DNA of 64,000 nucleotides, taken from Bdellovibrionota bacterium. GTDB lineage: Bacteria; Bdellovibrionota_C; UBA2361; JAAYZI01. The position numbers and the translations under genes were made by a program. Shown here piece by piece: positions 13,343 to 56,566 of the stretch; position 1 is the stretch's first letter, and every line of letters starts with the position of its first letter. The DNA lies in assembly GCA_050950765.1 (NCBI GenBank), contig JBMNIF010000002.1, positions 529,454-593,453 on the forward strand. The letters are read 5' to 3'. The notes under the pieces were generated by a model. The model did not search any database, was not told where the DNA came from, and saw only the letters and a program-made list of their open reading frames with translations.

Positions 13343-14758
13343 ATGGGAAAGAAAGCAAAAATACACCCTGATTGGGCAACAAAATATCGAGAGAAAGGAA
13401 AAGAGGTACGTCTTATCAATGGGAGATATTACCTATATAGCTACAGCTATAAGTATGACCCTGAGAGGAAAAGGAGCGTGAAAGTTACTGGTAAATTACT
13501 TGGACGAATTACAGAAGAGGACGGTTTTATACCAAGTGAGAAGAGAAGCCTTGTACCTGCTGTGAATATTAAGTGCAGAGAGTATGGTTTATCTCAATTT
13601 ATCCTCAATCAAAAAACAATTATTGAAAGACTTCGGTGTTATTTTCCAGATAAGTGGAAGGCTATTTTGCTGATGTCATACAGCAGGATCAAACATTGCT
13701 CTCCTATTAAACGCATGAATGATGATTTTGAAAACAGTATGTTGAGTGAAAAACTTAATTTTCTTCTTAATAAGAAAGCTATTCCGAATATTTTGCAATC
13801 GATTGGGAAAGATGAATTTGCTCGTTCTGAATATATGAAGAGTTTTATTCATGGAAAAGATTTTTTGTTAATTGATTCTACATTTCTTAGAACATCTATG
13901 AGAAAGTCGAGTCTTGCTAAAGGAGGATATAATAAAGACCATTTTTGGGAAACGCAGGCGAGTTTGCTTTATATTTACTCTAAAAAATTGCAACAACCAG
14001 TCTATTATAGGTTATTGGCTGGGAATATAAGAGATGTAAAAGCTCTATCTTTAACTATCCAAGAATCAGAAATTGGTGATGCTACTATTATTGCAGATAA
14101 GGGTTTCTATTCAGAGTCTAACGTTAAAGATCTTATAGAGAATAAACTTAGCTTTGTTATTCCATTGCGTAGAAATAGCTCTCTTATAGACTATGATGGA
14201 ATAGAAACAAGCAGGAACGTTATTGAATATAATAAAACGTACTTAAGATATAAAAAATATAAGATTGGGAATGGATTTATATATCTGTTTAGAGACCCGT
14301 TTTTAGCAGGTGAAGAGGAAAATAACTTAGTTTCATTAACAATATCTCATCCAGAAAAATACAATTTAACAGATGTTGATTTAAAAAAAGTGAGGCTAGG
14401 AACTGTTGCATTCTTTTCAAATTTGGACTCATCCGCAGAAGAAATATACACGTTATACAAAATGCGACTATCTATTGAACAATCTTTTGATACGTTAAAA
14501 ACTGTTTTAAAAGCAGATGCTTCATATATGAGTGATGATGATAAATTTCAGGGATGGATGTTCGTGAATCACATAGCAATACAGTGGAGCTATGAAATAT
14601 TAAAAACAATAAAAAAACATAAACTTTCGACTTCAATATCATTAGAAGATGCTATCAGAAGGTTATCTGAAATTAAAAAAGTTAGGCTTGGGGACTCTTG
14701 GTATTTAGCCGAGCAAACTAAAGCAGAGCTAAAAATAGCCGAACTGTTACTTACTTAA
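13343..14758 (+). CDS. IS4/IS1634-like DDE transposase
   Basis: 471 aa. Has an ADKGFYSESN (DDE D2-like) region and the overall N-terminal architecture of IS1634-type transposases. Sits as an isolated gene between pilin and NUDIX genes. Terminal inverted repeats could not be defined by eye. Confidence 0.5.
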   Translation: MGKKAKIHPDWATKYREKGKEVRLINGRYYLYSYSYKYDPERKRSVKVTGKLLGRITEEDGFIPSEKRSLVPAVNIKCREYGLSQFILNQKTIIERLRCYFPDKWKAILLMSYSRIKHCSPIKRMNDDFENSMLSEKLNFLLNKKAIPNILQSIGKDEFARSEYMKSFIHGKDFLLIDSTFLRTSMRKSSLAKGGYNKDHFWETQASLLYIYSKKLQQPVYYRLLAGNIRDVKALSLTIQESEIGDATIIADKGFYSESNVKDLIENKLSFVIPLRRNSSLIDYDGIETSRNVIEYNKTYLRYKKYKIGNGFIYLFRDPFLAGEEENNLVSLTISHPEKYNLTDVDLKKVRLGTVAFFSNLDSSAEEIYTLYKMRLSIEQSFDTLKTVLKADASYMSDDDKFQGWMFVNHIAIQWSYEILKTIKKHKLSTSISLEDAIRRLSEIKKVRLGDSWYLAEQTKAELKIAELLLT

Positions 14759-17190: not shown

Positions 17191-18318
17191 ATGCGCACAC
17201 CATTCCCTTATTTTGTCTATTTTCTTATCTCTTTTGCTCTGTGCGGTTGCAGTGCCAAAGAGGATCTTCCGCCGTCATTTCTCGCCAATATGGATGACTT
17301 TAAGAAGCATGATATAGTTCCCGATTTTTACCTCTTAAAAACGCCGCAAACTCCAACTACAAAATATCATAGTGTAATTATTGAAACTCCGTTACTGTCT
17401 CTAAACAGGGAGCAGAGATATTATTATGCCGATCCTTCATTTTTAAAGTTCGTGACCGATCTTTTACGAGAACAGGTTGCCCTTAGTGTAGGTAATGATT
17501 TCAAGATAACTGAATCCCCTTCTCCGAAAACTTTCAGGCTACGCCTTGCTATCACAAACGTCACCCTCCCCGATCATAAAACACTCCTCACGGCAAGGCA
17601 CGGCGGTTTAGTGCCGATTAGCCTTGATGATACGATTTTAGAGGCGTATTTTGAAGATTCCTTAAGTGGGGATCTTTTAGGTGGGGTAAGAGATTTAAGG
17701 ATAGGAAAGGTACGAAATCCCAAACTTATTCAAGGTTTTTCATCTCCTCTTTATCTTAAAAGCACCTTCGCCGCATGGAGCGGTGAATTAAGAGCGATCC
17801 TTTATGAGATATGCGTTCCCCCTACACATAAAAAAGATAAGGTGCATTCTAATAAAAAAAGAGAGCTTAAAGAGGGAGAGAGAAAATTCACTTCCAGCAC
17901 AACAGGAGATATTAAAGATGGTGAGGAAAAATTTAACTCCAATACAACAGAAGAGCTTAAAGAGGGAGAGAGAAAATTCACTTCCAGCACAACAGAAGAT
18001 CTTAAAGACGGTGAGGAAAGATCGTATTCTAATGCAAAAGGAAAGCTTAAAGATAGAGAGAGGAAATTCACTTCCAGCACAACAGAAGATCTTAAAGATA
18101 GAGAGGAAAAAACTTCTTCTAATGTAACAGGAGGTCTTAGAGAGGAAAGCAACAAGATAATGCCCTCCTTGCCTATCTTTATTGATAACGAACTATTTAT
18201 TGATAACGAACGAAGAGGTTTTAATTCAGGAAGTGCGTTTAAACCTCAATCTAAAGAAGCGCCTCTTTTTAATGGTGTAGAGAAGAACGAGGATAAAGCT
18301 ATAAAGAAGGTGCTTTAG
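17191..18318 (+). CDS. Putative lipoprotein with internal 20-aa tandem repeats
   Basis: Signal peptide ending ..ALCGCS. About 4.5 repeats of KELKEGERKFTSSTTEDLKDGEE, encoded by 60-bp DNA repeats at about 17850-18130. Confidence 0.5.
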   Translation: MRTPFPYFVYFLISFALCGCSAKEDLPPSFLANMDDFKKHDIVPDFYLLKTPQTPTTKYHSVIIETPLLSLNREQRYYYADPSFLKFVTDLLREQVALSVGNDFKITESPSPKTFRLRLAITNVTLPDHKTLLTARHGGLVPISLDDTILEAYFEDSLSGDLLGGVRDLRIGKVRNPKLIQGFSSPLYLKSTFAAWSGELRAILYEICVPPTHKKDKVHSNKKRELKEGERKFTSSTTGDIKDGEEKFNSNTTEELKEGERKFTSSTTEDLKDGEERSYSNAKGKLKDRERKFTSSTTEDLKDREEKTSSNVTGGLREESNKIMPSLPIFIDNELFIDNERRGFNSGSAFKPQSKEAPLFNGVEKNEDKAIKKVL

Positions 18319-18490
18319 TTAGGGTAAGGGAGAACCGAGCTTCTGAAAATGTAGATTTAAAGAGAAGGAAGTAGATAAAACTATAAATAAGGTACCTTAG
18401 GGTAAGGGAGAACTGAGTTTCTGAAAATGTAGATTTAAAGAGAAGGAAGTAGATAAAACCATAAATAAGGTACCTTAGGGTAAGGGTTTA
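18295..18490. repeat. 78-bp tandem repeat (about 2.3 copies) that begins inside the 3' end of the lipoprotein gene
   Basis: Unit ataaataaggtaccttagggtaagggagaac.gag.ttctgaaaatgtagatttaaagagaaggaagtagataaaac. Confidence 0.7.
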
Positions 18491-20852: not shown

Positions 20853-22478
20853 CTAGAGATAGCCTCTTAGGTTTTCCATAACGGAGGTGATGTTTTGGAA
20901 ATCTACATATTCACGCTGCACCTTAAGCTCTTGCGGTAGCACCTCCTGTTTAGAACCTTTATTATCAAGTCTAATAACGAAGAGGGATATTTTATCGGCG
21001 CACTTTTCATATTCATCTATAAGATCCTGTATACCATCCCCCTTTGTGATCGGAGTGTCCGTTATAACGATTACAGAACGGTTAAACTTAGCCTCTACTG
21101 CACAAACTTCCTTTAGCGCTTGAGTGATAGCACGACCTCCGCCGCTTGGCGCTCCTATATCAGCACGATCTGTTTGCAGACCTTTACCTTTACTTTTACT
21201 TTTTACCTTACTTTTTTGCATCAGATGCAGAGCGTCACTTACCTTACTTTTATCTCCGACCTCAATCACACTATTTTTAGGAGACCCACCGTCTGCAACA
21301 ATCAGGTGTAAAACATCTTCATTTTTAGGAGTAAGCCAAAACTTTCCCTCCTCATTTTTCGCAATATCTGCGAAGGCTTCTTTTAATTCAGCACTAAAAC
21401 TATCTCTTAGCCCCATCTCCGCATTTAAAACAAATACTGCATAGCTCGGCTTTCTTAAAAACTCCTGATACCGTCCTAAAAACCTATTTAATTGAAACTT
21501 ATTTAAGCCGCTCCGCGTTGAAGCCTTTTGCAAGGGGCTTAAACCTCGCCAACTTTCAGAATCGTAATACTTACCGAAAGGAGTTCTGAAAAATGCACCT
21601 GCTAACCTTTTTTGTGCAGTCTTTCCCGTTAAGTAACGTTTAATATCTCTCACAAGTTTTTGTCTCTCCTTATCGCCTTTATGGAGATAAACAAGTTGTG
21701 CACTTATCCCATAAGGAGCTTGTGTAAAGTAGAGTACATCTCTCGGGATGAGCCCTTCTTGACGCATCTTTTTATTAAATCTAGCTGCCATGCGTTCTGT
21801 TACAATAACAGCATCATAGTTGGGGTCTTCAAAAACCCCTCTAAAATCAAGGGGATTAGGAGAGATAAAAGCTGCATTAGCTATAAAACGTTTTAAACTT
21901 TTTCTTAATTCTAACGGATTTTTTTCCGTTCCTTTTTTTTCTGCTAGTTTTAGAACTCCCAGATAAGTAGATAACCCGACGGGATGGTGCGTTGGCGTTA
22001 AAAAAGCGTATTTTAAACCCCCTTTTAAAGTTTCCTCAAAAAAAGCTTCCGCCTTTAAGGTACGATGAAATCCGTCTTGAAACGGCTTCCCCTTATCCTT
22101 ATTAAACGCCACAACTATGGGGCTAAACATAATCTGTTTTATCTCAAGAGCAAGTCTTGTCGCTGCGGAAAGTTGTAGCCACTCTATGGAGGGCATCAGC
22201 ACGATATCTGGATTTTGCAAAAGGTCTTCCTGCTGTAACGTTTGTAAGATCTCCGTGCTGGAGAGGTAGCGCACCCTAAAATCGTATTTATGATCCTTAC
22301 GTTGCTTAGCGTAGATAAATTCAGTAATTGTATTTCCCAACTCGTGCAGATCTGGTGTGGCGATTATCTCAAAGGTGGGACGTTTTATTACGTTATCACT
22401 TTGAAGGTGTCTAAAGACAATTCCGAGTGACACGATACAGATTATACATAAGGTTAAAAAAAGGAGCTTCTGTCTCAT
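20853..22478 (-). CDS. Secreted or membrane-anchored protein with possible C-terminal vWA-like region
   Basis: N-terminal signal/anchor. C-terminal SVIVITDTPITKGDG resembles the vWA TDG block. Last gene in the same orientation as the Tad-like operon. Confidence 0.35.
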   Translation of the reverse strand: MRQKLLFLTLCIICIVSLGIVFRHLQSDNVIKRPTFEIIATPDLHELGNTITEFIYAKQRKDHKYDFRVRYLSSTEILQTLQQEDLLQNPDIVLMPSIEWLQLSAATRLALEIKQIMFSPIVVAFNKDKGKPFQDGFHRTLKAEAFFEETLKGGLKYAFLTPTHHPVGLSTYLGVLKLAEKKGTEKNPLELRKSLKRFIANAAFISPNPLDFRGVFEDPNYDAVIVTERMAARFNKKMRQEGLIPRDVLYFTQAPYGISAQLVYLHKGDKERQKLVRDIKRYLTGKTAQKRLAGAFFRTPFGKYYDSESWRGLSPLQKASTRSGLNKFQLNRFLGRYQEFLRKPSYAVFVLNAEMGLRDSFSAELKEAFADIAKNEEGKFWLTPKNEDVLHLIVADGGSPKNSVIEVGDKSKVSDALHLMQKSKVKSKSKGKGLQTDRADIGAPSGGGRAITQALKEVCAVEAKFNRSVIVITDTPITKGDGIQDLIDEYEKCADKISLFVIRLDNKGSKQEVLPQELKVQREYVDFQNITSVMENLRGYL

Positions 22479-22540
22479 AACAGAATGATTCTATTTAAGT
22501 GCCCCTCACGTCAAGAGAGAGAATATCTAACAAAGCATAA

Positions 22541-22650
22541 TCTTCTTTAAGAACTTATAAAGGTGCCCCTACCTGTGTCAATAAGGGAGGCACTACCTGT
22601 ATCAACTGTAAACTTATAAAGGTGCCGCCCGCATAGATTGGTAAAGATAT
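22541..22650. repeat. Intergenic degenerate duplicate of the 3' coding end of the tadG-like gene
   Basis: cctgtgtcaataagggaggcactacctgtatcaactgtaaacttataaaggtgccgc...catagattggta matches 22858..22945 inside the gene at about 85%. Confidence 0.65.
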
Positions 22651-22698
22651 GGTAGAGATAGAGATCGGTAAAAATAGAGGTGGGGTATTTAACTCCCC

Positions 22699-24600
22699 CT
22701 ACTCAATCTCAACTATCTGATACGGATTAACCCCCACTACATAATCATCCATAGCATCTTTAATCTGCTGGGCTTGCGTTCTGCAATCCGTAGTTACCAA
22801 CTGACCGTAACGTGTTCGATCACATTGATTTTTGCGCCATTCAGCTCCATCACAGATCTCCCCCACCTGTGTTAGTAAGGGAGCCCAGACACCACCTGTA
22901 TCAACTGCAAACTTATAAAGGTGCCGCATAGATTGGTAGAAAGGCTTAGAGGCGGTTTTGTTATTAAATACACCTTCACAATCACTACCAAAATCAGAAC
23001 ACCCTGAGCTCCCTCTTACAAAATCATATATACCGGTTTTATTTTTTGAAGACCTAAACTCAGCATCAGTAAAACACGTCCCCGTCTCAGTATTTTCTAA
23101 AGCAACCCAGTGTGGTCCCACATCCTTACCAACAGGAAAGATGTGTAGAGGGATATTGTTGGCTACCATAGTATTAACTACCCTCTGCAATTCATTCATG
23201 CCGTTTACATAGTAATTATAATCGCTTGCATTGCAATGTACTCCTGTAGTATCTCCATCCCAACAAGTTTGTAAACCATCAGTAAAAAGCACCACTGCAT
23301 TAGAAACGTTTTCAGAAGCCCCCTCACTATCAGCAAGTAACCTCTGAACCGCCTCTTCAAGCGCCTGCTTTATATGTGTTTGCCCCCTATTCGCTTGCGG
23401 ACGTTTATTTATATCTACACTATCAAACATAGGGATTAAACCGTACCTAACAGCACGCTCTACACCAGCACTTACATTTGAAAAAGGATCACGCGTATTA
23501 ATATCATCACTATCAAAGATACAGCCCTCTTCATCTGTATCTCCATCAGAGTAATCGGTAAAATTTATTAGTTGATCTAACTTATCGGTTAAGACCGTCA
23601 TCCTTGGCCAGAAGAGACCGTTTGAAAACATTATAACTCCCGCCTTATCTCCCGCTACGCTACGCGCCTTAAAAGCTTTTAAGGCGTTATGAATACCGTC
23701 ATAGATATCAGCTAACGGTTGAGGTCTCCCTTTAGTGCCTACTCCCCTATAAGCATAAACATGGAAAGACTCTCTACTGCCAAAGTTATATCTTTCATCT
23801 CCGATCTCTCTAGTAAATTTATCTTTACACGGATCAGCTGTGCTTGGGCAAGGGTGGAGATCTCGAAGCTCGTTACAAGTAAAATTATTATAATCGTCAT
23901 CACCAAGTACAAACTTCTGTTTGTAGTGCTTTGTATCTTCTCCAAAAGAAGTAAGCCTAAAAGTATAACAAGTATCACTTATCACATAATCAGGGCAATT
24001 ATACTCAAAATTAAAGGTATCTTGTGTAGTAGAGAAAGAGGTATCAACTAAAAAATAGATATGCCTCGGCACCACCATAGCCGTAGCTTTTACATAGGGG
24101 GCGATCTCTTTTATACCGAAGAACCTTCCAAAAGACATCTCCGTATCTCGTACATAGTTACCTGAGATACGTACGGCGTTAGGAGTGGTGCAATCTCCTG
24201 TCTCATCCGGAGTAAAAACCTGCTTTCCTAAGCTCTCGTCTCTCTTCCAACACCCCAACTCTAAACGAAAGAGGCTTTCTTCACCTAAACCAACTGCCCT
24301 TTGAGCAGACGCAGCATCTTCACTTTTAGGATCGTTATCATTTAATAACTTATTTACAGCCTCTACGGCTGCCTCTTTTGCCGCTTCTTTAGTTTCGTTA
24401 AGTGCCCTCGCTGAAACGTACTCTTCTAAAGCTCTTAAAGTTGCAAGTTTGGTATTTTGTCTCGCTTTTTCAGCGTCGTTCATCATACGACTAACATCGA
24501 TAACTATGGCAGCGAGACCAAAAATAACTATCATCGAGATACAGAAAAGAACCATAAAACCGCCGTTTTCTCGCTTCTTCATTAGCACCTTCCTTTTCAC
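22699..24600 (-). CDS. TadG-like pseudopilin with vWA domain
   Basis: N-terminus FMVLFCISMIVIFGLAAIVIDVSRMMNDAEKARQ is a TadE/G-like hydrophobic segment. MIDAS motif FLVDTSFST (DxSxS). Confidence 0.6.
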   Translation of the reverse strand: MKRKVLMKKRENGGFMVLFCISMIVIFGLAAIVIDVSRMMNDAEKARQNTKLATLRALEEYVSARALNETKEAAKEAAVEAVNKLLNDNDPKSEDAASAQRAVGLGEESLFRLELGCWKRDESLGKQVFTPDETGDCTTPNAVRISGNYVRDTEMSFGRFFGIKEIAPYVKATAMVVPRHIYFLVDTSFSTTQDTFNFEYNCPDYVISDTCYTFRLTSFGEDTKHYKQKFVLGDDDYNNFTCNELRDLHPCPSTADPCKDKFTREIGDERYNFGSRESFHVYAYRGVGTKGRPQPLADIYDGIHNALKAFKARSVAGDKAGVIMFSNGLFWPRMTVLTDKLDQLINFTDYSDGDTDEEGCIFDSDDINTRDPFSNVSAGVERAVRYGLIPMFDSVDINKRPQANRGQTHIKQALEEAVQRLLADSEGASENVSNAVVLFTDGLQTCWDGDTTGVHCNASDYNYYVNGMNELQRVVNTMVANNIPLHIFPVGKDVGPHWVALENTETGTCFTDAEFRSSKNKTGIYDFVRGSSGCSDFGSDCEGVFNNKTASKPFYQSMRHLYKFAVDTGGVWAPLLTQVGEICDGAEWRKNQCDRTRYGQLVTTDCRTQAQQIKDAMDDYVVGVNPYQIVEIE

Positions 24601-24786
24601 TATTATTTAATCGATAACATTACTTTTTCTCGAGCTATTAAGATTATAAATTTAACTCTACTATTTAAGTATTACGTAACACTTACTTCTTAAGATATCT
24701 AAAACTTATTACTAATAAGGTAGAGAGAAGGATTATAAAGTTACTCGCTATCATAATCCTTCTCTGCATTTTTTAATTATTCTTCC

Positions 24787-27700
24787 TTAACCTTGCTTGC
24801 TACGCACAACCCACTCACTTGTCGTTTCCATATAGTCACACCCAGCTATCTTTGTAATATCTCCGCAATTTTCGATCTCAGATTCTGTCATACATACTTT
24901 TTTCTCACCTATGGTAACTTCTTTTTTACCACTTTCACAAACGCACACACACTCACCTTTACTATTTCTTGAAGCAACAAGGCTTTGATGCCCACATTGA
25001 ATTTTTGTCTCATCACATCCGCAAGCGCACTCATCGGCGTAATACCTTTCATCTTCTCCACAGCCGATATTTATTTTAGAATTACCCTTAAGATTTCCAT
25101 TATCATCGTACTTACAGACACAAGTATTGTCTTCTACAATCTCGTTCTCGCCGCAACTTACACACTCTTCATTTTGCATTACAAACCCTGAATTGCAGAT
25201 ACAATCACCTACTTCTTCATCCCATACTGAGTTTTCAGTACACGTCTGACATTCACAATAAGAACCATTCATAACGAGGTGTTGGTTCTCTCCTTGACAG
25301 AAATCTCCTAGGTTTGCAGCACCTGCCCCGTCTTTTTTCTTAGCACGTCCTGTTAATGAGTCTCTATCATAGATACAAGCACACTGCGTATATATAGATG
25401 CAGAACTACTTCCACTATGCGGCACAAGTTCTGTCCCATCAGGGCAAAAATCACAACTACAATTAGTCGTATCTATTAAATATTGCCCCTGCTCATGACA
25501 CTTTTCTTCACTAGTTGTTATATCATCATCACCATCAATCCCAGTTGTACAGTCGCAACCAGTACCATCTTCATTTCCAACAAAAACTGTGCCATCTTCT
25601 GCGCAATCAACACATTCACAAGATGCTTCCTTAAATTGTTTACCTTCATGAGCGCACTTTTCCTTTACAAGCGCTTGAACTTCTTCACTACACTCACAAT
25701 TTAGTGACTTGCTATCAGTTGGTGTTTGAGAATCTTCAAGGGTGTTCGGAGTGCCCGCTCTATAATTACCGTCACAGATACACCCCGACCCATCTTCAGA
25801 TAATCTTTGATTGGGATTAGTAGTGCACGTCACACACGCACACTCTGCATAATCAAAGTATTCATCGTCGTTGTCACATTCTTCTTCGAAGTGTTTTCCA
25901 CCTTCTTCACTATACTTACACTCTTCACAGTTTAACTTTGTTATATCTGAAGACTCACCTAACTTATGATAAGAATCGCACGCACAAGCTTCTACTCCGA
26001 CCCCTCCAGTACTTGTAGTATTCTCTCCGCAAGAGAGGCAGTCACACTTTTCATAATCGAAGTATGTACCTTCAGGACATTTAGTACCATCACTACCAAA
26101 TGCAGCGCCGTCTACGTCTGAAGCATATTTACAAACGCAATCTCCTATCTCTTCACCTTCAGTAGATATAGTTTGATATGGAGTACAACAACTGCACTGA
26201 GTTATACTAAAGTTTCTTGAGTCCTTAATACAGGCTTCGTATTTGGTTTTAGTCTCTCCCTCTGTTATATTACAGGAACAGGTGCTACCTTTTACCGCTA
26301 CACTATCTTCACATTTACAATAAGCAGCGTTACCTTCTCTAATAAACGTACCACCTGTTTTTTCGCATAACTCTTCAAGCGTAGCAATATCAACATTATT
26401 AGGTCCAGCACCGGAGCTATTGCCCTTACCGTCGCCACCGCCGCTACCACCTTTTCCGCACTTTGCAGAATCTGTACAGGTACAACTTAAGCCGTCACCT
26501 TTATAGCCGTTAGTAGTATCACAGACACAAGTTGTACCATTAAAAGTTGCTCCCGTAGCAGTACAACACTTCTCCTCCTTGCAGGAACACGATCCCTTTT
26601 CACTGTAATAACCTTGTGAGTTGTCGCAGACGCAAGTATGGTTACCTTGTGCATCAGTACCTGCCGCATAACCTTTCTTAGAATCACAAACACAGTTCCC
26701 ATTAGCATCTTGGAAGGTATTGGCTATACAAATACACCCTGCTTCTGTTGCTTCTCTAAAATCTTGATTTCGACAAACACAGTTATCTGTCCCTGCTTCA
26801 AACTCATTACTGACACAGGTGCAACTACCATTTATCAGTGAACGATTGTTTTCACAGACACAGTTTCCGCCGTATGCCTTAAAGTATTTATTCTCATCAC
26901 AGACACAGATACCGTCTTTCCTTATATAATTATTACGGCAGACGCAGTTAGGCAGCTTAACAGAAACGCCCTCTATTGTCTCAGTTTTATAACTCAATAC
27001 CTCATTATTCGAACAACTTCCTATACCACCACAATCACAAGTATCTTCGCTAAATGGATTATAACCATGATCCTTACACCAAGCAGAGATCTCTCTTTTT
27101 TGAGCTTCTGTATAATTACATTCACACCTTTCAGTAGCAGAATTGTAAGTTTTATTTCTATCCCTACATTCGCAATCGCAGGTAGCTTTATTAAACTTTA
27201 AACCTCGATCACTACACCATTTTTGCACTGCCGTTTCATTACAAGAGCCGCCACCGCCGCCACCTGCTAGATCTCCAGCAGCTACTCCACCTCCTGTAAT
27301 ACCATCAGAGATATCACAGCTACAGATCTCAGTGTAATACGCCACCTTTTTATCGTAGCAGTATTGTTTAGAATTTGGTGTATTAGCCTCCTCATCATCA
27401 CACTCACAGGCACAGGTATCTGTATTTAACTTACCAAGCCCGTTCTTTGTTATACAATCTTCAGGGGTAAGGGGGCACTCACAAACCATACTCCCCTCTT
27501 CCTCTGTAACTACAAAGTTCTCAGGACAGACACACTCATAATACCCTTTTTTAGTCTCTTTTACCGTCCAAGCTCCACTTCCACAAGAATCACAGGAGCA
27601 GGTCTCTGCGTTAAAGATAGAAGCTCCTTGCCTAGTACAATCATCTTGAGAATCCCTATATTTAGGACATTGACATTCACAATAATACTTCGTCTCTTTT

Positions 27701-32874: not shown

Positions 32875-35800
32875 CTACATCGCTGCTAATTTCTGATAGT
32901 AAGCAAAACGATCCGTTACATTCTTCTGTAACTTCTCCAGTAGAAGTGCAGCACGCTCAGGATTCTTAGTCCTTAAAATATTAAAGCGATTTTCGCCGTA
33001 GATATAATCTGTAAGGGGCAAAGTCGGCTCTTTAGAATCAAAGATAAGTGGATTCTTACCCTCTTTTGCCAAATCAGGATTATACCGATACAACAACCAA
33101 GAACCGCTATTAACTGCTTTCTTCTGCTCTTCCAGCCCCTTCTTAAGATCAATGCCGTGCGCAATACAGTGCGAATAGCAGATAATCAGAGATGGGCCAT
33201 CATAAGCTTCGGCTTCCTTAATCGCCTTCACAGCGTGCTGGTCATTAGCACCAAGCGAGATACTAGCAACATAAACGTGCTTATAACTCATCGCCTGTAA
33301 GCCGATATCTTTCTTGTTCATTGTTTTACCAGCAGCAGCAAAGAGCGCGACAGCTCCTGTCGGTGTAGATTTTGACATCTGTCCACCTGTATTTGAATAC
33401 ACTTCAGTATCCAGCAATAACACATTAATGTTCTCACCTGATGCTAAAGCGTGATCCAATCCGCCGTAACCGATATCATACGCCCAGCCGTCACCACCGA
33501 TAATCCAGACACTCTTCTTAGAGAGGTAATCAGCCAAAGAAAGTAAAGACTGCGCCTCAAAGGATTTGTTATTAGCTATGGCAGCCTTTAGTTGTGCAAT
33601 CCTCTCTCGTTGAGCTTTAATCTCTGACTCATCATGCTCTGTGGCGTTTAAGATATCGTTAGCTAAACTCTCACCGATTTCAGCCTTCAACGCACTTACT
33701 AACTCTCTAGCCTGTTCAGCTTTTTTATTCACTGTTAAACGGAAGCCTAAACCGTATTCGGCATTGTCTTCGAAAAGTGAATTTGACCAAGCAGGACCAC
33801 GCCCCTCTGCATTCTTACAATACGGAGTGGTCGGTAAATTACCGCTATAAATTGAAGAGCACCCCGTTGCATTAGCCACAAGCATTCTGTCGCCAAAAAG
33901 TTGTGTTACGAGTTTAATGTACGGAGTTTCTCCACAACCGGCGCAAGCACCTGAGAACTCAAAAAGAGGTCTAAGCAACTGAGAGCCTTTAACGGTTGCT
34001 TGGTTAACAGCCGAACGGTCAGTATAATCAAGCGTCTCAAAGAACTCCCAATTCTTAACTTCACGCTCTCTAATCGGTACAAACGGTACCATGTTAATAG
34101 CTTTCTGCCCTTCAACCTTTTTGCTCTTAACAGGACAAGCATCGATACAGATTCCGCAACCGGTACAATCTTCCGTAGAGATCTGTAAGATGAATTGTGT
34201 TCCTTCCGGAAAATCTTTGCCCTTTGTTGGAGCTGACTTAAAGCCTTGCGGTGCAGATTTTAACTTTGCACCTTCACAAGTTTTCATCCTGATAACTGCG
34301 TGCGGACAAACAATGGAGCACTTACCACACTGAATACACGCTTCAGGATCCCACTCCGGAACTGTTAATGAGATAGCACGTTTTTCCCACTGCGTGGTGG
34401 CAGTCGGATAAGCACCATCGGCAGGCATCTGACTTACCTTCAAAGCTTCGCCCTCATCAATCATCATCGGAGCTAAAACTTCCTTAACGAACTTAGGCGC
34501 ATGCTCAGGCACAGCACTCTTACGACGGATTGTGCTAGTTGGTGTTGCCGGAACAGGGATCTCATGCAAATTACTCAGAGACTCATCAACAGCCTTGAAG
34601 TTTTTCTGAACGACATCTTCACCCTTACTACTGTAAGATTTTTTAATAGCACCTTTAATCTTCTCAATCGCCTCTTCTCGCGGAAGGATATTAGCGATAG
34701 CAAAGAAACAGGCTTGCAGGATGGTATTTATTCTGCTGCCCATACCGGTCTTCTTAGCTACTTCATAAGCATTGATTGAATAGAACTTGATCTTCTTTTC
34801 GATAATTGTTTGTTGAATCTCATAAGGTAACTTGTCCCAAACTTCATCCTTAGAATACGGTGCATTCAAAAGGAAGGTTGCTCCAGAACACGCTTCTTTT
34901 AAGACATCTAATTTTTCCAATAAGCTGAACTGATGACACGCTACAAAGTTGGCGTGGTCGATCAGATAGATTGAACGGATCGGATCTTTACCAAACCTTA
35001 AGTGCGATTTTGTTAAACCACCCGATTTTTTAGAGTCATAAACAAAGTAGCCTTGTGCATGGTTATCAGTCTCTGTACCGATGATCTTAATGGAGTTTTT
35101 ATTAGCACCAACTGTGCCATCAGAGCCGAGTCCGATAAAAACACCGCGGAAGGAGTTCTCGTTTTCAGTTCTAAAGTCTACATCATAAGTAAGGCTGGTA
35201 TGAGAAACATCATCATTAATACCAACAGTAAAGTGATTCTTCGGATCATCTTTTTTAAGTTCATCAAAAACCGCCTTGATCATAGCCGGTGTAAACTCTT
35301 TGGAAGATAAGCCATAACGTCCGCCGATAATCTTGGCATGTCGTCCTGCTTCTGCAAAGGCAGCAACAACATCAAGATAGAGCGGCTCACCAACACAACC
35401 TGACTCTTTAGTTCTATCCAAAACTGCTACGCTCTTTACAGTAGTTGGGATAGCAGCCATAAGATCTTTTATTGAGAAAGGACGGTATAAACGCACCTTC
35501 AAGACACCGACCTTCTCACCCATCTTCTTAGTCATATAATCTACAACTTCAGAAGAGGTTTCAGCGCCGGAGCCCATCAAGATCAGTAAACGCTCGGCAT
35601 CAGGAGCGCCATAATAATCAAAGAGGTGATACTCACGTCCCGTTACCTTAGCAAACTCTTTCATAGCAGTTTTAACGATCTCAGGAGTAGCTGCATAATA
35701 CGGATTACAAGCTTCTCTAGACTGGAAGAAGGTGTCTGGATTTTGTGCGGTACCTCCGATCCTCGGTTGTTCAGGACGCAAGCCGCGCTCTCTATGAGCG

Positions 35801-36402
35801 ATCACATCTTTAATATCGATCAAACTCTTCATCTGATCTTGCGTTAACTTTTCAATCTTCATCAACTCGTGCGAAGTTCTAAAACCATCAAAGAAGTGAA
35901 GGAATGGAACTCTAGCTTTTAACGTTGACATATAAGCTATCATCGCTAAGTCCATCGCCTCTTGCACTGAATTAGAAGCAAGCATGGCGAACCCTGTCTG
36001 ACGACAAGCATAAACATCGCTATGGTCGCCAAAGATTGAGAGGGCGTGAGTCGCTAAAGTACGCGCTGCTACATGGAAAACAGTTGAGGTCAACTCACCT
36101 GCAATCTTATACATATTAGGGATCATTAAGAGCAGACCTTGAGAGGCAGTAAAAGTCGTACTTAAAGCACCTGCTTGTAAGGCTCCGTGTACAGCACCTG
36201 CAGCACCTGCTTCACTCTGCATCTCATAAACTTTAGGAGTAATGCCAAAGATGTTCTTCATATTTTTGGCACTCCAACTATCTGAGTATTCACCCATCGG
36301 AGAAGAAGGGGTGATCGGGTAAATCGCGATAACCTCACTCAAATTAAAACCAACATGCGCCGCAGCTTCATTGGCATCCATAATAACTTTTTCAGTAGTC
36401 AT
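32875..36402 (-). CDS. nifJ: Pyruvate:ferredoxin (flavodoxin) oxidoreductase, single-chain PFOR
   Basis: 1175 aa with an N-terminal PFOR domain I pattern. Two 4Fe-4S ferredoxin motifs (CIQCGKCSIVCP; CTGCGICIDACP). TPP-binding GGDGWAYDIG block. Confidence 0.9.
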   Translation of the reverse strand: MTTEKVIMDANEAAAHVGFNLSEVIAIYPITPSSPMGEYSDSWSAKNMKNIFGITPKVYEMQSEAGAAGAVHGALQAGALSTTFTASQGLLLMIPNMYKIAGELTSTVFHVAARTLATHALSIFGDHSDVYACRQTGFAMLASNSVQEAMDLAMIAYMSTLKARVPFLHFFDGFRTSHELMKIEKLTQDQMKSLIDIKDVIAHRERGLRPEQPRIGGTAQNPDTFFQSREACNPYYAATPEIVKTAMKEFAKVTGREYHLFDYYGAPDAERLLILMGSGAETSSEVVDYMTKKMGEKVGVLKVRLYRPFSIKDLMAAIPTTVKSVAVLDRTKESGCVGEPLYLDVVAAFAEAGRHAKIIGGRYGLSSKEFTPAMIKAVFDELKKDDPKNHFTVGINDDVSHTSLTYDVDFRTENENSFRGVFIGLGSDGTVGANKNSIKIIGTETDNHAQGYFVYDSKKSGGLTKSHLRFGKDPIRSIYLIDHANFVACHQFSLLEKLDVLKEACSGATFLLNAPYSKDEVWDKLPYEIQQTIIEKKIKFYSINAYEVAKKTGMGSRINTILQACFFAIANILPREEAIEKIKGAIKKSYSSKGEDVVQKNFKAVDESLSNLHEIPVPATPTSTIRRKSAVPEHAPKFVKEVLAPMMIDEGEALKVSQMPADGAYPTATTQWEKRAISLTVPEWDPEACIQCGKCSIVCPHAVIRMKTCEGAKLKSAPQGFKSAPTKGKDFPEGTQFILQISTEDCTGCGICIDACPVKSKKVEGQKAINMVPFVPIREREVKNWEFFETLDYTDRSAVNQATVKGSQLLRPLFEFSGACAGCGETPYIKLVTQLFGDRMLVANATGCSSIYSGNLPTTPYCKNAEGRGPAWSNSLFEDNAEYGLGFRLTVNKKAEQARELVSALKAEIGESLANDILNATEHDESEIKAQRERIAQLKAAIANNKSFEAQSLLSLADYLSKKSVWIIGGDGWAYDIGYGGLDHALASGENINVLLLDTEVYSNTGGQMSKSTPTGAVALFAAAGKTMNKKDIGLQAMSYKHVYVASISLGANDQHAVKAIKEAEAYDGPSLIICYSHCIAHGIDLKKGLEEQKKAVNSGSWLLYRYNPDLAKEGKNPLIFDSKEPTLPLTDYIYGENRFNILRTKNPERAALLLEKLQKNVTDRFAYYQKLAAM

Positions 36403-36956: not shown

Positions 36957-39900
36957 ATGCAGAAGTTTACCTTAAGAACCTTGAAATTAGTTGTGCTGTT
37001 TAGCTTTTTCTGTGGCAGTCTGGCAGGTGCGGAAACTTTTTTGCCAACCACTCAAAATTATAACTATAATTTCAACATCCTAAACAACTTATCAACACCG
37101 CCTACTGCACAAAACTTTAATATTAAAAACTTCTCTCTCTTCTCTACCTTAAAAAAATCACTCCCCTTTAGAAGAGAGTTCTTTGGAAATCCTCCCCCTT
37201 ATCTAGCAGCGCAAGTAACCTCCATCTCTATGGGCTACTTTCACGCCTGTGCTATTGTAGGAGGGCGTCTCTATTGTTGGGGGCTTAACTCCTCCGGTCA
37301 ACTCGGGATTAACAGCACTGACACCACAACAACTCCAACTTTAACTTACGACCCTAGCACAACCTCTTTTACAGGTTTATTAGGTGGTCAAGGTGTCTCT
37401 TCTGTTTCTGCTAATGGTTATAACACCTGCGCTATCAACGCAGACGGTAAACTTTACTGTTGGGGAGAAAATGACTCTGGTCAAGTCGGGAATGGAACTC
37501 TAGGATTTGATTGTAAGTATCCAGTATTAATTGAAGATCCAAGTACACTTTCTTGTAGTGGTCTTCTAGGTTCAGAAACAGTTATCGCCGTTTCAGTAGG
37601 TGCTTCGCCCAACGACACTCCTGAAGGAGAGAGCTCCGGTAGAACTCACGTTTGCGCTATAAATGCAGATGATAAACTTTACTGTTGGGGAGATAACACC
37701 TTCGGACAATTAGGCGACGGACAAAGCGGAGGGTCTTTACCGCGTCTTGTAGGGGATAGCGGAACTTTAAATGGAAGAGGTGTTGTTCAAGTTTCAGCAG
37801 GATACAGTTTTACCTGTGCTATCAATACAGAGAGTCTCCTTTTTTGTTGGGGCAAAAACGATTACGGACAGTTGGGGATTTATTCAACAGAAAATACCAC
37901 CTCCCCCACACCTATATATAATGCAGATCCAGAAAAAGTTGGTGGACTTGGAACTGGAAACGATCCAGCGGTTATGTCAGTTTCAGCAGGTACAACTCAC
38001 ACCTGTGCCATAGAGAGCGGATATCTTTTCTGTTGGGGAGATGGTAGTTATGGAGCGCTTGGAAATGGTGATGGAACAGATAGAAGTTTTCCAGTCGCTA
38101 TCAATAAAGGATCTCCACCAGGTCAATTAGACGGAAGTATTGTTCTATCTACCTCTTCAGGATCTGGTTTTACCTGCGCTATCAACGAGATCGGTGAAAT
38201 TTATTGCTGGGGGAAAAATACTGATAAAAAACTACTCGGGATTAGTGGAGTAGATACTAGATTTCCCCAGCTTGTGGCAGGTTCAGATAGTAATCCCAAT
38301 CCTGGCTTACTAGGCACATATACTGTAAATGCCGTTTCTTGTTCAAACTCCGGTCCCTCCTATCAATCGATCTGCGGCATAAACTCACAACATAATCTTT
38401 ATTGCTGGGGAGATAGTAACTTTGGTCAATTAGGACAAAACTCTACCACTACCAATACAACACCGACACAAACACTCTTTAATGAAGACTCCACTTGTAA
38501 CGGTATCGATGATGATGGTGATGGATTAACTGATGAAGATTACGTTTCTGTATCTTGTAACACAGGGCTACACGGTTTATGCGCAGCAGGAACAACATCT
38601 TGTAACGCCGGAAGTGTAGTTTGTAATCAGACAAATTCTCCTACAACTGAGATCGCTTGTAATAATATCGATGATGACTGTGACGGTATAACTGATACTG
38701 ATGCTGCAGGTTACGGAGCTGCTTGTAATAACGGGCTACTCGGTGCGTGTTACAAAACAGGCACGATGTCAGTTTGTGATGGAGGAGTTTTAACGTGCTC
38801 TGCTCCAAACGTTGAACCTACAACTGAAGTCGCTTGTAATAATATCGATGATGACTGTGATGGAGTAACTGATACTGATGCTGCAGGTTACGGAGCTGCT
38901 TGCAATAACGGGTTACTCGGTGCGTGTTATAAAACAGGCACGATGTCAGTTTGTGATGGAGGAGTTTTAACGTGCTCTGCTCCAAACGTTGAACCTACAA
39001 CTGAAGTCGCTTGTAATAATATCGATGATGACTGTGATGGAGTAACTGATACTGATGCTGCAGGTTACGGAGATGCTTGTAATAACGGACTACTCGGTGC
39101 GTGTTATAAAACAGGCACGATGTCAGTTTGTGATGGAGGAGTTTTAACGTGCTCTGCTCCAAACGTTGAACCTACAACTGAAGTCGCTTGTAATAATATC
39201 GATGATGACTGTGATGGAGTAACTGATACTGATGCTGCAGGTTACGGAGCTGCTTGTAACAACGGACTACTCGGTGCGTGTTATAAAACAGGCACGATGA
39301 CTCTTTGTGAAGGAGGGGTTTTAACGTGTTCTGCTCCAGATGCAGATCCAGTAAGTGAAATTTGCGGTAACGGCATTGATGATGATTGTGATGGTGAAAC
39401 TGATGAAGATTGCAATGCAGAAACTCCTACCCCTACCCCTCCAGCGCCTTTTGTAGATGCTTGTCCTACCGACCCGAATAAAACTGAAGCAGGAGTTTGC
39501 GGCTGCGGTATAGCCGATAGCGATCATAACAATAACGGCATAATTGATTGCCTTGACCCGAAGTGGCCGACAACAAAAATAGATAGTATCGTTACACCAA
39601 ACACCAAACCTGTCACTCCACGGGTAGATGTAGTAAAGAAAAAGGTCGTCGTTTATATGCAACGTTTTAAACGTGCCGAGCTACTGAAAAAATTACGTAA
39701 CGTAGTTAACTATGCCAAAAAAAATAAAAGGAAAAAAATTACCTTTAGGTATGAAGTTGTTCTAAGACAGGTCTCTACTAAAACAACGTATAAAAGTATC
39801 ACGAAGAAAAAGATTCAATCTCGGATCTCAAAACGTAATAAAGTAATCTTTAAGAAACAGCGGCAAGGAACTTACAAAATTAAGTACAGAGTTAAGATCT

Positions 39901-39971
39901 ATAAGAACGGTAAACTTGCTAAGAACACGAAGTGGAGCGATTCTAAAACTGTTACAGTTTCGAAAAAGTAG
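36957..39971 (+). CDS. Secreted RCC1-repeat protein with MopE-like cysteine repeats and lysine-rich C-terminal tail
   Basis: Signal peptide. About 7 RCC1 blades (YCWG.N..GQLG). Four near-identical 56-aa repeats CNNIDDDCDGVTDTDAAGYGAACNNGLLGACYKTGTMSVCDGGVLTCSAPNVEPTTEVA (CxxxDDDCDG metal-binding-type motif). Basic K-rich C-terminus. Confidence 0.7.
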   Translation: MQKFTLRTLKLVVLFSFFCGSLAGAETFLPTTQNYNYNFNILNNLSTPPTAQNFNIKNFSLFSTLKKSLPFRREFFGNPPPYLAAQVTSISMGYFHACAIVGGRLYCWGLNSSGQLGINSTDTTTTPTLTYDPSTTSFTGLLGGQGVSSVSANGYNTCAINADGKLYCWGENDSGQVGNGTLGFDCKYPVLIEDPSTLSCSGLLGSETVIAVSVGASPNDTPEGESSGRTHVCAINADDKLYCWGDNTFGQLGDGQSGGSLPRLVGDSGTLNGRGVVQVSAGYSFTCAINTESLLFCWGKNDYGQLGIYSTENTTSPTPIYNADPEKVGGLGTGNDPAVMSVSAGTTHTCAIESGYLFCWGDGSYGALGNGDGTDRSFPVAINKGSPPGQLDGSIVLSTSSGSGFTCAINEIGEIYCWGKNTDKKLLGISGVDTRFPQLVAGSDSNPNPGLLGTYTVNAVSCSNSGPSYQSICGINSQHNLYCWGDSNFGQLGQNSTTTNTTPTQTLFNEDSTCNGIDDDGDGLTDEDYVSVSCNTGLHGLCAAGTTSCNAGSVVCNQTNSPTTEIACNNIDDDCDGITDTDAAGYGAACNNGLLGACYKTGTMSVCDGGVLTCSAPNVEPTTEVACNNIDDDCDGVTDTDAAGYGAACNNGLLGACYKTGTMSVCDGGVLTCSAPNVEPTTEVACNNIDDDCDGVTDTDAAGYGDACNNGLLGACYKTGTMSVCDGGVLTCSAPNVEPTTEVACNNIDDDCDGVTDTDAAGYGAACNNGLLGACYKTGTMTLCEGGVLTCSAPDADPVSEICGNGIDDDCDGETDEDCNAETPTPTPPAPFVDACPTDPNKTEAGVCGCGIADSDHNNNGIIDCLDPKWPTTKIDSIVTPNTKPVTPRVDVVKKKVVVYMQRFKRAELLKKLRNVVNYAKKNKRKKITFRYEVVLRQVSTKTTYKSITKKKIQSRISKRNKVIFKKQRQGTYKIKYRVKIYKNGKLAKNTKWSDSKTVTVSKK
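38630..39300. repeat. Four near-identical 168-bp tandem repeats inside the RCC1 protein gene
   Basis: Copies differ by only a few nucleotides at the DNA level. Confidence 0.8.
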
Positions 39972-47785: not shown

Positions 47786-47837
47786 TTTAGTTCCTTAGTG
47801 AGTCGGATAGTTGAATATCTTAGTCTGATCTAATGAT

Positions 47838-47960
47838 AGCAACGGAGTGATTATAACAGAACTTTTTTATCACCACCCTTGTAGCAACGGAGTGGTTACA
47901 ACAGATCTTTTTTATCACCACCCTTGTAGCAACGGAGTGATTATAACAGAACTTGTCTTA
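47838..47960. repeat. 45-bp tandem repeat, about 2.7 copies
   Basis: Unit agcaacggagtgattataacagaacttttttatcaccacccttgt. Confidence 0.75.
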
Positions 47961-49612: not shown

Positions 49613-49880
49613 GATTTTACCTCATCCATGAATAGATAACTCCGAGTGGTACTGCATCAAAGAAACTGCGCTTCACAACTAGCCCCGTCCTTAGGCATTA
49701 TAAAAATGCGTCTATACAATCCTGACGCAGAGAATCCATTCTAAGTTTAATTGTCGTCCAAGCTACAAATATCCTTTAGTGGTTTTTTTAAATTTGTAAG
49801 AAAATTCCTAAAAAATATAAAATAGGTAACAAAATCAGGGTGTTGCACTACGCATTTTTTACACTTTTTGCTATGGAGCG

Positions 49881-50075
49881 CCCTCTCTAAGAAGGTAAAA
49901 GGTAGTGACTGTGTGATTGATATTAGTGAGAATGTTTTTACCCCCTTTACTACAAAGCACTTCCTCTAAAAAAGTAAAAAGTAGTTACTGTGCGATTGAT
50001 ATTAGTGAGAATGTTTTTACTCCCTTTGTCACAAAGCACTTCCTCTAAAAAAGTAAAAAGGCATTTACTGTAATT
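49881..50075. repeat. Tandem repeat of about 83 bp, about 2.3 copies
   Basis: Unit ..ctctaa.aa.gtaaaa.gtagt.actgtg.gattgatattagtgagaatgtttttac.ccctt..cacaaagcacttcct. Confidence 0.75.
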
Positions 50076-50252
50076 GGTGTCAAAGAAAAATATTTTTAAA
50101 AAGTGTAAGAGATCTTACAGCAAATTAGAAAAAAATTTGAACGTAACTTAAGAGCTAGCTATGGTTTATCACACTTATTAAAATTATCACCTTTACAAAG
50201 GTAAAAGATTTATTACGAACGTTGAGATTATCAGAGTAAGGTAAAATTTATT

Positions 50253-56289: not shown

Positions 56290-56485
56290 AAACAATGTGC
56301 CGCTTTAACAGGTAAAAAATTCGCCGCAAGGAAAAAGCACGCGGTTTTAGTAGAAAAAAACTTTACCATAAGAAAAAAATCATGCGGTTTTAGGAGGAAA
56401 AAGCTTTACTATAAAAATAATATGCGGCTTTAGTAGGTAAAATTCGCCGTAAGGAAAAAATCATGCGGTTTTAGGAGGTAAAAAA
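56290..56485. repeat. Intergenic tandem repeats of about 40 bp, each carrying an SD-like and ATG-like element
   Basis: atgcgg.tttag.agg(t)aaaaa... recurs 4-5 times, and taggagg recurs twice. Confidence 0.7.
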
Positions 56486-56566
56486 TCTCTATACTTTCAA
56501 GTTGTTCCAAATTAGCTACAATGATTATATATTGAGCAAGCGGGTTTCTCCATAGGAAATATCATT

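Follow-up and report, generated by a model that had tools for sequence, protein, structure and literature searches.

The described class closest to the locus reported here is that of duplications and deletions produced at short direct repeats by slipped misalignment, which is RecA-independent, or by template switching in replication (e.g. PMC1428787). The locus resembles this class in an insertion/deletion bounded by perfect 16-nt direct repeats, in a GG/GGG microhomology junction and copies that lie a few hundred nucleotides apart, and in small tandem duplications within the same spacer (GCGG, and units of 11-14 nt). It departs from the class in no respect; the event is here inferred from sequence, and it was not a simple head-to-tail tandem duplication. 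Partial pseudogenes and intergenic gene remnants are likewise comparable, in that the spacer copy (A' in the following) is a promoterless, frame-disrupted and lineage-specific fragment of a neighbouring gene; it differs from them in being very short (about 95 nt) and in coming from the adjacent gene itself, not from a decayed paralogue. The diversity-generating retroelement (DGR), with its template repeat (TR) and variable repeat (VR), is similar in placing a near-copy of a 3'-proximal coding segment in the downstream spacer, whereas the present locus has no reverse transcriptase, mismatches that are not adenine-specific, indels, and a target segment that is conserved. The pilE/pilS silent cassettes of Neisseria and the R64 shufflon share the setting of a pilus-associated gene that has a partial copy downstream of it; here, in contrast, the one copy is frame-broken and matches an invariant segment, the repeats stand in direct and not in inverted orientation, and the neighbouring genes include no recombinase. 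The feature described below is of an ordinary, already known kind.

The window, i.e., the whole 64-kb stretch of DNA that was analysed, comes from an uncultured Bdellovibrionota bacterium, and the repeat pair sits at a pilus-associated gene for a vWA-domain protein (the 'tadG-like' gene; coordinates are collected in the table). The product of this gene contains a VWA domain (PF00092, E = 2.4e-08). From residue 7 onward it is identical to NCBI MGI6524551.1 ('MAG: VWA domain-containing protein [Bdellovibrionota bacterium]'), and an exact protein look-up with the full 633-aa ORF gave no match, the annotated protein beginning at M7; this is probably the start, giving a protein of 627 aa. The gene belongs to a Tad-like cluster, with a 222-aa and a 1562-aa TadE-like protein upstream and the SBP-vWA gene downstream. 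The distance to the next gene, which an earlier reading of the sequence alone (the sequence-only reading) had given as a 220-bp gap, is indeed 220 nt. Because a scan of this spacer found no terminator-like site, the vWA gene and the downstream SBP-vWA gene are probably co-transcribed.

The remainder of the window is ordinary chromosome, with recJ, leuA-like, PFOR, topA and IMPDH genes. A DDE_Tnp_1 transposase ORF of 471 aa (13343-14758) stands between recJ and the NUDIX/leuA-like block, and is probably an IS element. Among 185,579 GTDB species representatives, the top match to the PFOR (pyruvate:ferredoxin oxidoreductase, 32875-36402) has just 64% identity, and its matches are spread over different phyla; a close relative of the vWA protein is likewise absent from these representatives. 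The source lineage is sparsely sampled.

Table. Features of the vWA locus, in window coordinates
Feature	Position	Strand	Remarks
vWA-domain ('tadG-like') gene	22699..24600	minus	Longest ORF, 633 codons
Downstream gene (SBP-vWA gene)	20853..22478	minus	SBP_bac_11 + VWA_3, 541 aa
Spacer between these two genes	22479-22698		220 nt
Copy A, coding source segment	22858..22947	minus	Codons ~553-582 (KPFYQSMRHLYKFAVDTGGVWAPLLTQVGE); conserved family motif PF..Y..A..T.G...P.R
Copy A', degenerate spacer copy of A	22548..22647	minus	
Segment B, true 3' end of the gene	22699..22857	minus	Last 52 sense codons and stop; final 51 codons follow the copied segment
R16 copy 1	22910..22925	minus	Inside the vWA gene, codons RHLYKF
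R16 copy 2	22611..22626	minus	Left boundary repeat of the 59-nt haplotype indel
R16 copy 3	22552..22567	minus	Right boundary repeat of the 59-nt indel
Mini-array	22635..22672	minus	11-14 nt per unit, TTACCAATCT-like and degenerate; source: 5' edge of copy A

A degenerate spacer copy of an internal coding segment

When the coding segment was compared by blastn with the whole 64-kb window, it aligned with A' over 83 columns (E = 1e-18). The identity is 81.9% when the 2 gaps are counted along with the 6 mismatches, and 91.8% over the 73 columns free of gaps. The similarity is far above background on rigorous alignment, and the '~85% identity' of the sequence-only reading is a fair description, the figure being 82% with gaps and 92% without. 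A repeat search of the window resolved the pair into co-linear direct blocks of 41 nt (93%), 24 nt (88%) and 15 nt (100%), and blastn shows a 34-nt block of 97% identity in direct orientation, at a distance of 299 nt. Neither blastn nor a pattern search found a further copy in the 64-kb window, where the repeat is unique to this locus, and a 24-nt sub-pattern of it has no exact match in JGI metagenome contigs; on these grounds a dispersed repeat or MITE is rejected. The 16-mer R16, AACTTATAAAGGTGCC (GGCACCTTTATAAGTT on the sense strand), was correctly noticed to occur twice in the spacer copy; it occurs once more in the gene and nowhere else in the window, with 0.09 matches expected by chance. 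TRF finds an internal period of 24 nt in A' and one of 29 in the coding copy. The mini-array stands just before the 5' edge of A'.

It had been proposed that the last codons of the gene were duplicated in the spacer. The repeat is real, but the copied part comprises codons ~553-582 of 633, and the final 51 codons are unduplicated. The two copies are 295-299 nt apart, with 210 nt between them, and the true 3' end of the vWA gene, which lies in this interval, is present in one copy only; the arrangement is therefore not a simple tandem duplication. An assembly artefact is ruled out, because four independent assemblies carry identical coding and spacer sequence.

An exhaustive HMMER search returned 309 homologues of the vWA protein. 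Homologues at 30-42% identity align through the last residue, both of the query and of themselves, and an alignment of 22 homologues shows that the conserved C-terminal signature PF..Y..A..T.G...P.R...C...C...DP.CR..Q..M...G.NP..V spans the copied segment and the tail. The Cys-rich part of this signature, C...C...DP.CR..Q..M...G.NP..V, is the conserved C-terminus encoded by segment B. Since the C-terminus is conserved to the last residue in these homologues, the expressed A+B 3' end is ancestral, and A' is derived from an internal conserved segment. In distant homologues (36-42% identity), only about 9 nt separate the vWA-type gene from the next gene; A' is therefore specific to the lineage.

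The spacer copy differs from A by six substitutions, all of them transitions, and by two indels, one a tandem duplication of GCGG (+4) and the other a deletion of 5 nt. In the frame of the vWA gene it runs into a stop after 9 codons, and no ORF of at least 20 aa was found to cross it. There is no Rfam match in A'; the sole Rfam signal of the spacer, suhB, lies outside A' and is sub-threshold (17.7 bits vs a gathering score of 41). The fold z-scores of the spacer RNA relative to shuffles are -0.08 and -0.91, and promoter-like matches number 2, vs 1.4 expected from shuffles. A structured RNA, a terminator and a small ORF in the spacer are rejected on the basis of Rfam, the fold z-scores, and the terminator and ORF scans. 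Four transitions are private to A', and at alignment columns 84 and 95 A' agrees with the coding allele of another assembly, L001 (see below), and not with the window's own. Because of the two bases held in common with the L001 allele and the four private transitions, A' is not recent.

Two haplotypes and the origin of the spacer copy

Relatives of the locus were found as a single 90%-identity cluster among 5.8 billion proteins; searches of genome and metagenome contig collections with the vWA protein gave nothing further, and the locus had no match in the plasmid collection. Only two haplotypes are present in public data. The long form, an exact match of the window, is carried by four assemblies; the contigs L083 (JGI 3300060823), L084 and L085 (SRR31061296, SRR31066035) show no difference from the window in the 3' end of the gene and throughout the spacer. 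The short form is carried by two, L001 (SRR11702768) and L002 (ERZ28614917), where the vWA protein is 92% identical. Relative to the long form, exactly 59 nt are missing between the two perfect spacer copies of R16, and just CCAATCTATGTGGCACCTTTATAAGTT is kept ahead of the common downstream sequence. Further, it lacks a 27-nt stretch bounded by TTTACCRATCT (about 27 nt of the mini-array are missing) and the GCGG duplication. Neither the three R16 copies of the window haplotype nor the two of the short haplotype contain a mismatch. The two natural haplotypes differ exactly at repeat boundaries, and a 59-nt indel between perfect 16-nt direct repeats reads as the signature of misalignment or template switching. 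Segment A has no amino-acid difference between the alleles, residues 553-580 of the protein being identical in both.

Identity between the haplotypes is 98-100% from R16 copy 3 downstream and 82-93% just upstream. They are 100% identical over the 88 nt that lead from R16 copy 3 up to the start codon of the SBP-vWA gene, which is itself 98-100% identical over its whole length. The variable patches of the vWA protein lie outside the copied segment, and one of them (residues 581-597) begins where A ends. Compared with L001, a 100-nt patch of the vWA gene (23926-24025) has 72% identity, and the C-terminal part of the 1562-aa TadE-like protein (24730-25650) has 50-80% identity, in patches. Such mosaic divergence suggests that diversifying selection or recombination may act on the pilus-associated surface proteins, and its mosaic distribution across the locus means that no single clock applies. 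Biologically, more is to be expected of the hypervariable patches in these neighbouring Tad-like surface proteins than of the repeat.

Most likely, A' is a neutral, non-functional, decaying partial duplicate, which arose from misalignment or template switching at short direct repeats in replication or repair; the repeat, its degeneracy, the ancestral status of the real 3' end and the repeat-bounded indel are shown by the data, and the order of events and the absence of function we infer from them. The first state would be a short copy of about 28 nt (TACCAATCTATGYGGCACCTTTATAAGTT) already in the spacer. A nascent strand would then anneal to the coding copy, at a distance of 299 nt, through R16, copy about 48 nt more, and return to the spacer R16 via GG(G) microhomology, giving R16-Y'-R16; unequal exchange followed by internal deletion would be an equivalent route. 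The 299-nt separation falls in the range given for template switching inside one replication fork (PMC1428787). Later drift of the copy would account for the four private transitions, the 5-nt deletion and the 4-nt GCGG duplication, and misalignment between the two spacer R16 copies could interconvert the long and short haplotypes. Most simply, the R16 that adjoins the common downstream sequence is the original short copy, and the suggested polarity is from the short form, by templated extension from the coding copy, to the long form; the present short form would accordingly be the ancestral state, or else have been restored by a deletion between R16 copies. The idea that this is the scar of a tandem duplication or a remnant fragment holds in that the copy is frame-broken and lineage-specific, has no ORF or RNA signal, and is associated with a repeat-bounded haplotype indel, but a simple tandem event it was not.

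A counter-point to decay is that R16 is intact in every copy although the neighbouring bases have diverged, and these perfect copies could hint at constraint. An intact R16 is also expected by chance, at (0.92)^16 ~ 0.26 per copy, and is unsurprising because one copy is coding and because intact repeats are needed to see the indel at all. A protein-binding site in A' would be compatible with the absence of a predicted RNA structure or ORF. The present consequence of A' is as a recombination substrate only. The last 51 codons of the vWA gene lie between near-identical direct repeats of 34-41 nt, and an A/A' deletion, a physically possible and rare event, would truncate the vWA protein, whose predicted product ends in ...HLYKFTVDTGSASLIDTGRGTFISS followed by a stop. 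On a small scale, the locus illustrates cleanly how sequence in bacterial spacers is both created and lost through short direct repeats, and it shows that slippage can by chance produce a layout like that of a DGR or a cassette. In annotation, the spacer fragment is not to be called a gene or a cassette.

Alternative readings of the spacer copy

One could instead regard the spacer R16 or X motifs as a cis-regulatory element, i.e., as binding sites for a protein or sRNA or as a 3'UTR/5'UTR element, by which the SBP-vWA gene downstream would be controlled or the operon mRNA stabilised or destabilised; the likeness to the coding segment would then reflect the origin of the site. We regard this as unlikely. 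It gains from the constancy of R16 in every copy of both haplotypes, from loosely similar 15-mers (AGGGGCAC[C/T]T..A) at 22492, 22556 and 22686, and from a weak sigma-70-like site at 22514-22485; yet one spacer copy of R16 is tolerated as well as two, and so is the loss of the 43 nt between them, the promoter-like matches are in no excess over shuffles, Rfam and the fold z-scores give no signal of a structured RNA, and distant relatives have virtually no spacer. The perfect identity of the 88 nt upstream of the downstream start codon, which would also suit a regulatory role, is unexceptional when the whole downstream gene is 98-100% identical. A still less probable reading, to which we give very little credence, makes A' a displaced older 3' end: the gene would once have had its end within A' or close to it, with the present A+B inserted or recombined upstream. 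The 28-nt copy of the short haplotype, taken in the gene's frame, does run on as ...YQSMWHLYKFLKKIMLC to a stop, making a short open tail, but the present C-terminus B is conserved family-wide to the last residue, which marks it as the ancestral end, and blastn with a word size of 7 detected no second B after A'.

The sequence-only reading had also raised the possibility of a silent cassette for C-terminal variation. Through recombination with A, such a donor cassette, or deletion switch, would give a pilus-associated adhesin a varied or shortened C-terminus, and the locus has some of the attributes that this would call for, namely 34 nt of 97% identity repeated in direct orientation 299 nt apart, a gene for a surface or pilus-associated vWA protein within a Tad-like cluster, hypervariable patches between haplotypes, and one patch (residues 581-597) that begins exactly at the end of A. 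The proposal is not supported, and we consider it very improbable: there is one copy only, of a conserved segment that has no amino-acid difference between alleles; the variable patches are elsewhere; conversion across A', with its +4 and -5 indels, would bring a frameshift and an early stop; recombination between direct repeats would lead to irreversible deletion and not to switching; and the four long-haplotype assemblies are identical. The chance that A' is the TR of a DGR and A its variable repeat is practically nil. The layout is superficially alike, a near-copy of a 3'-proximal coding segment standing just downstream, and three of the six mismatches have A in the spacer copy; the remaining mismatches, however, are C>T, T>C and G>A, and the alignment also has two indels. 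A reverse transcriptase (RVT) domain is found in 0 of the 42 ORFs of at least 150 aa across the 64 kb, and the would-be VR is invariant at the protein level between alleles and contains a conserved family motif; a DGR is ruled out by the mismatch spectrum together with the lack of an RT in the window. A shufflon is rejected on the grounds that the repeats are direct, inverted pairs are just weak (78-85%), and there is no recombinase among the neighbouring genes. Nor are A and A' an attL/attR duplication made by an integrated element, for the intervening 210 nt encode the conserved ancestral C-terminus and not mobile DNA with an integrase.

Other tandem arrays in the window

A 78-nt tandem array (18319-18486; 2.2 copies, 96%) starts right after the stop of ORF 17191..18318(+), which encodes a DUF3313-like protein and has in-frame 45/90-nt tandem repeats of its own at 17846-18145. 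The last ~40 nt of this ORF (from 18279) match the end of the 78-nt unit at ~78%, and the array appears to be a second degenerate reappearance of a 3' coding end in a downstream spacer. The two candidate cases of recurrent copying, at 22.5 kb and 18.3 kb, are 4 kb apart. It seems very unlikely that a recurrent process in this lineage copies 3' portions of genes into downstream spacers, the repeats then serving as deletion/truncation switches for surface proteins. The motif TATAAA-N0-3-GGTRCY occurs at 22552-22567, 22611-22626, 22910-22925, 18300-18314 and 18382-18396 (5 occurrences vs 0.11 expected), and has no evidential weight, since it was derived post hoc from these very loci, the two with duplicated gene ends, and has no occurrence outside them.

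Further intergenic tandem arrays are found at 47837-47954 (45 nt, 2.6 copies), 49856-50098 (79 nt, 2.7 copies) and 56310-56486 (43 nt, 4.3 copies), and the source genome evidently accumulates slippage products in its spacers. Together with the array at 18.3 kb, these arrays speak for the ordinary reading of A' as a duplication scar. Within coding sequence, ORF 36957..39971(+), which encodes a 1004-aa RCC1-repeat/MopE-motif protein, contains a 177-nt repeat in 3.9 copies at 96% identity (38640-39431); these Cys-rich modules have been homogenised or expanded very recently.
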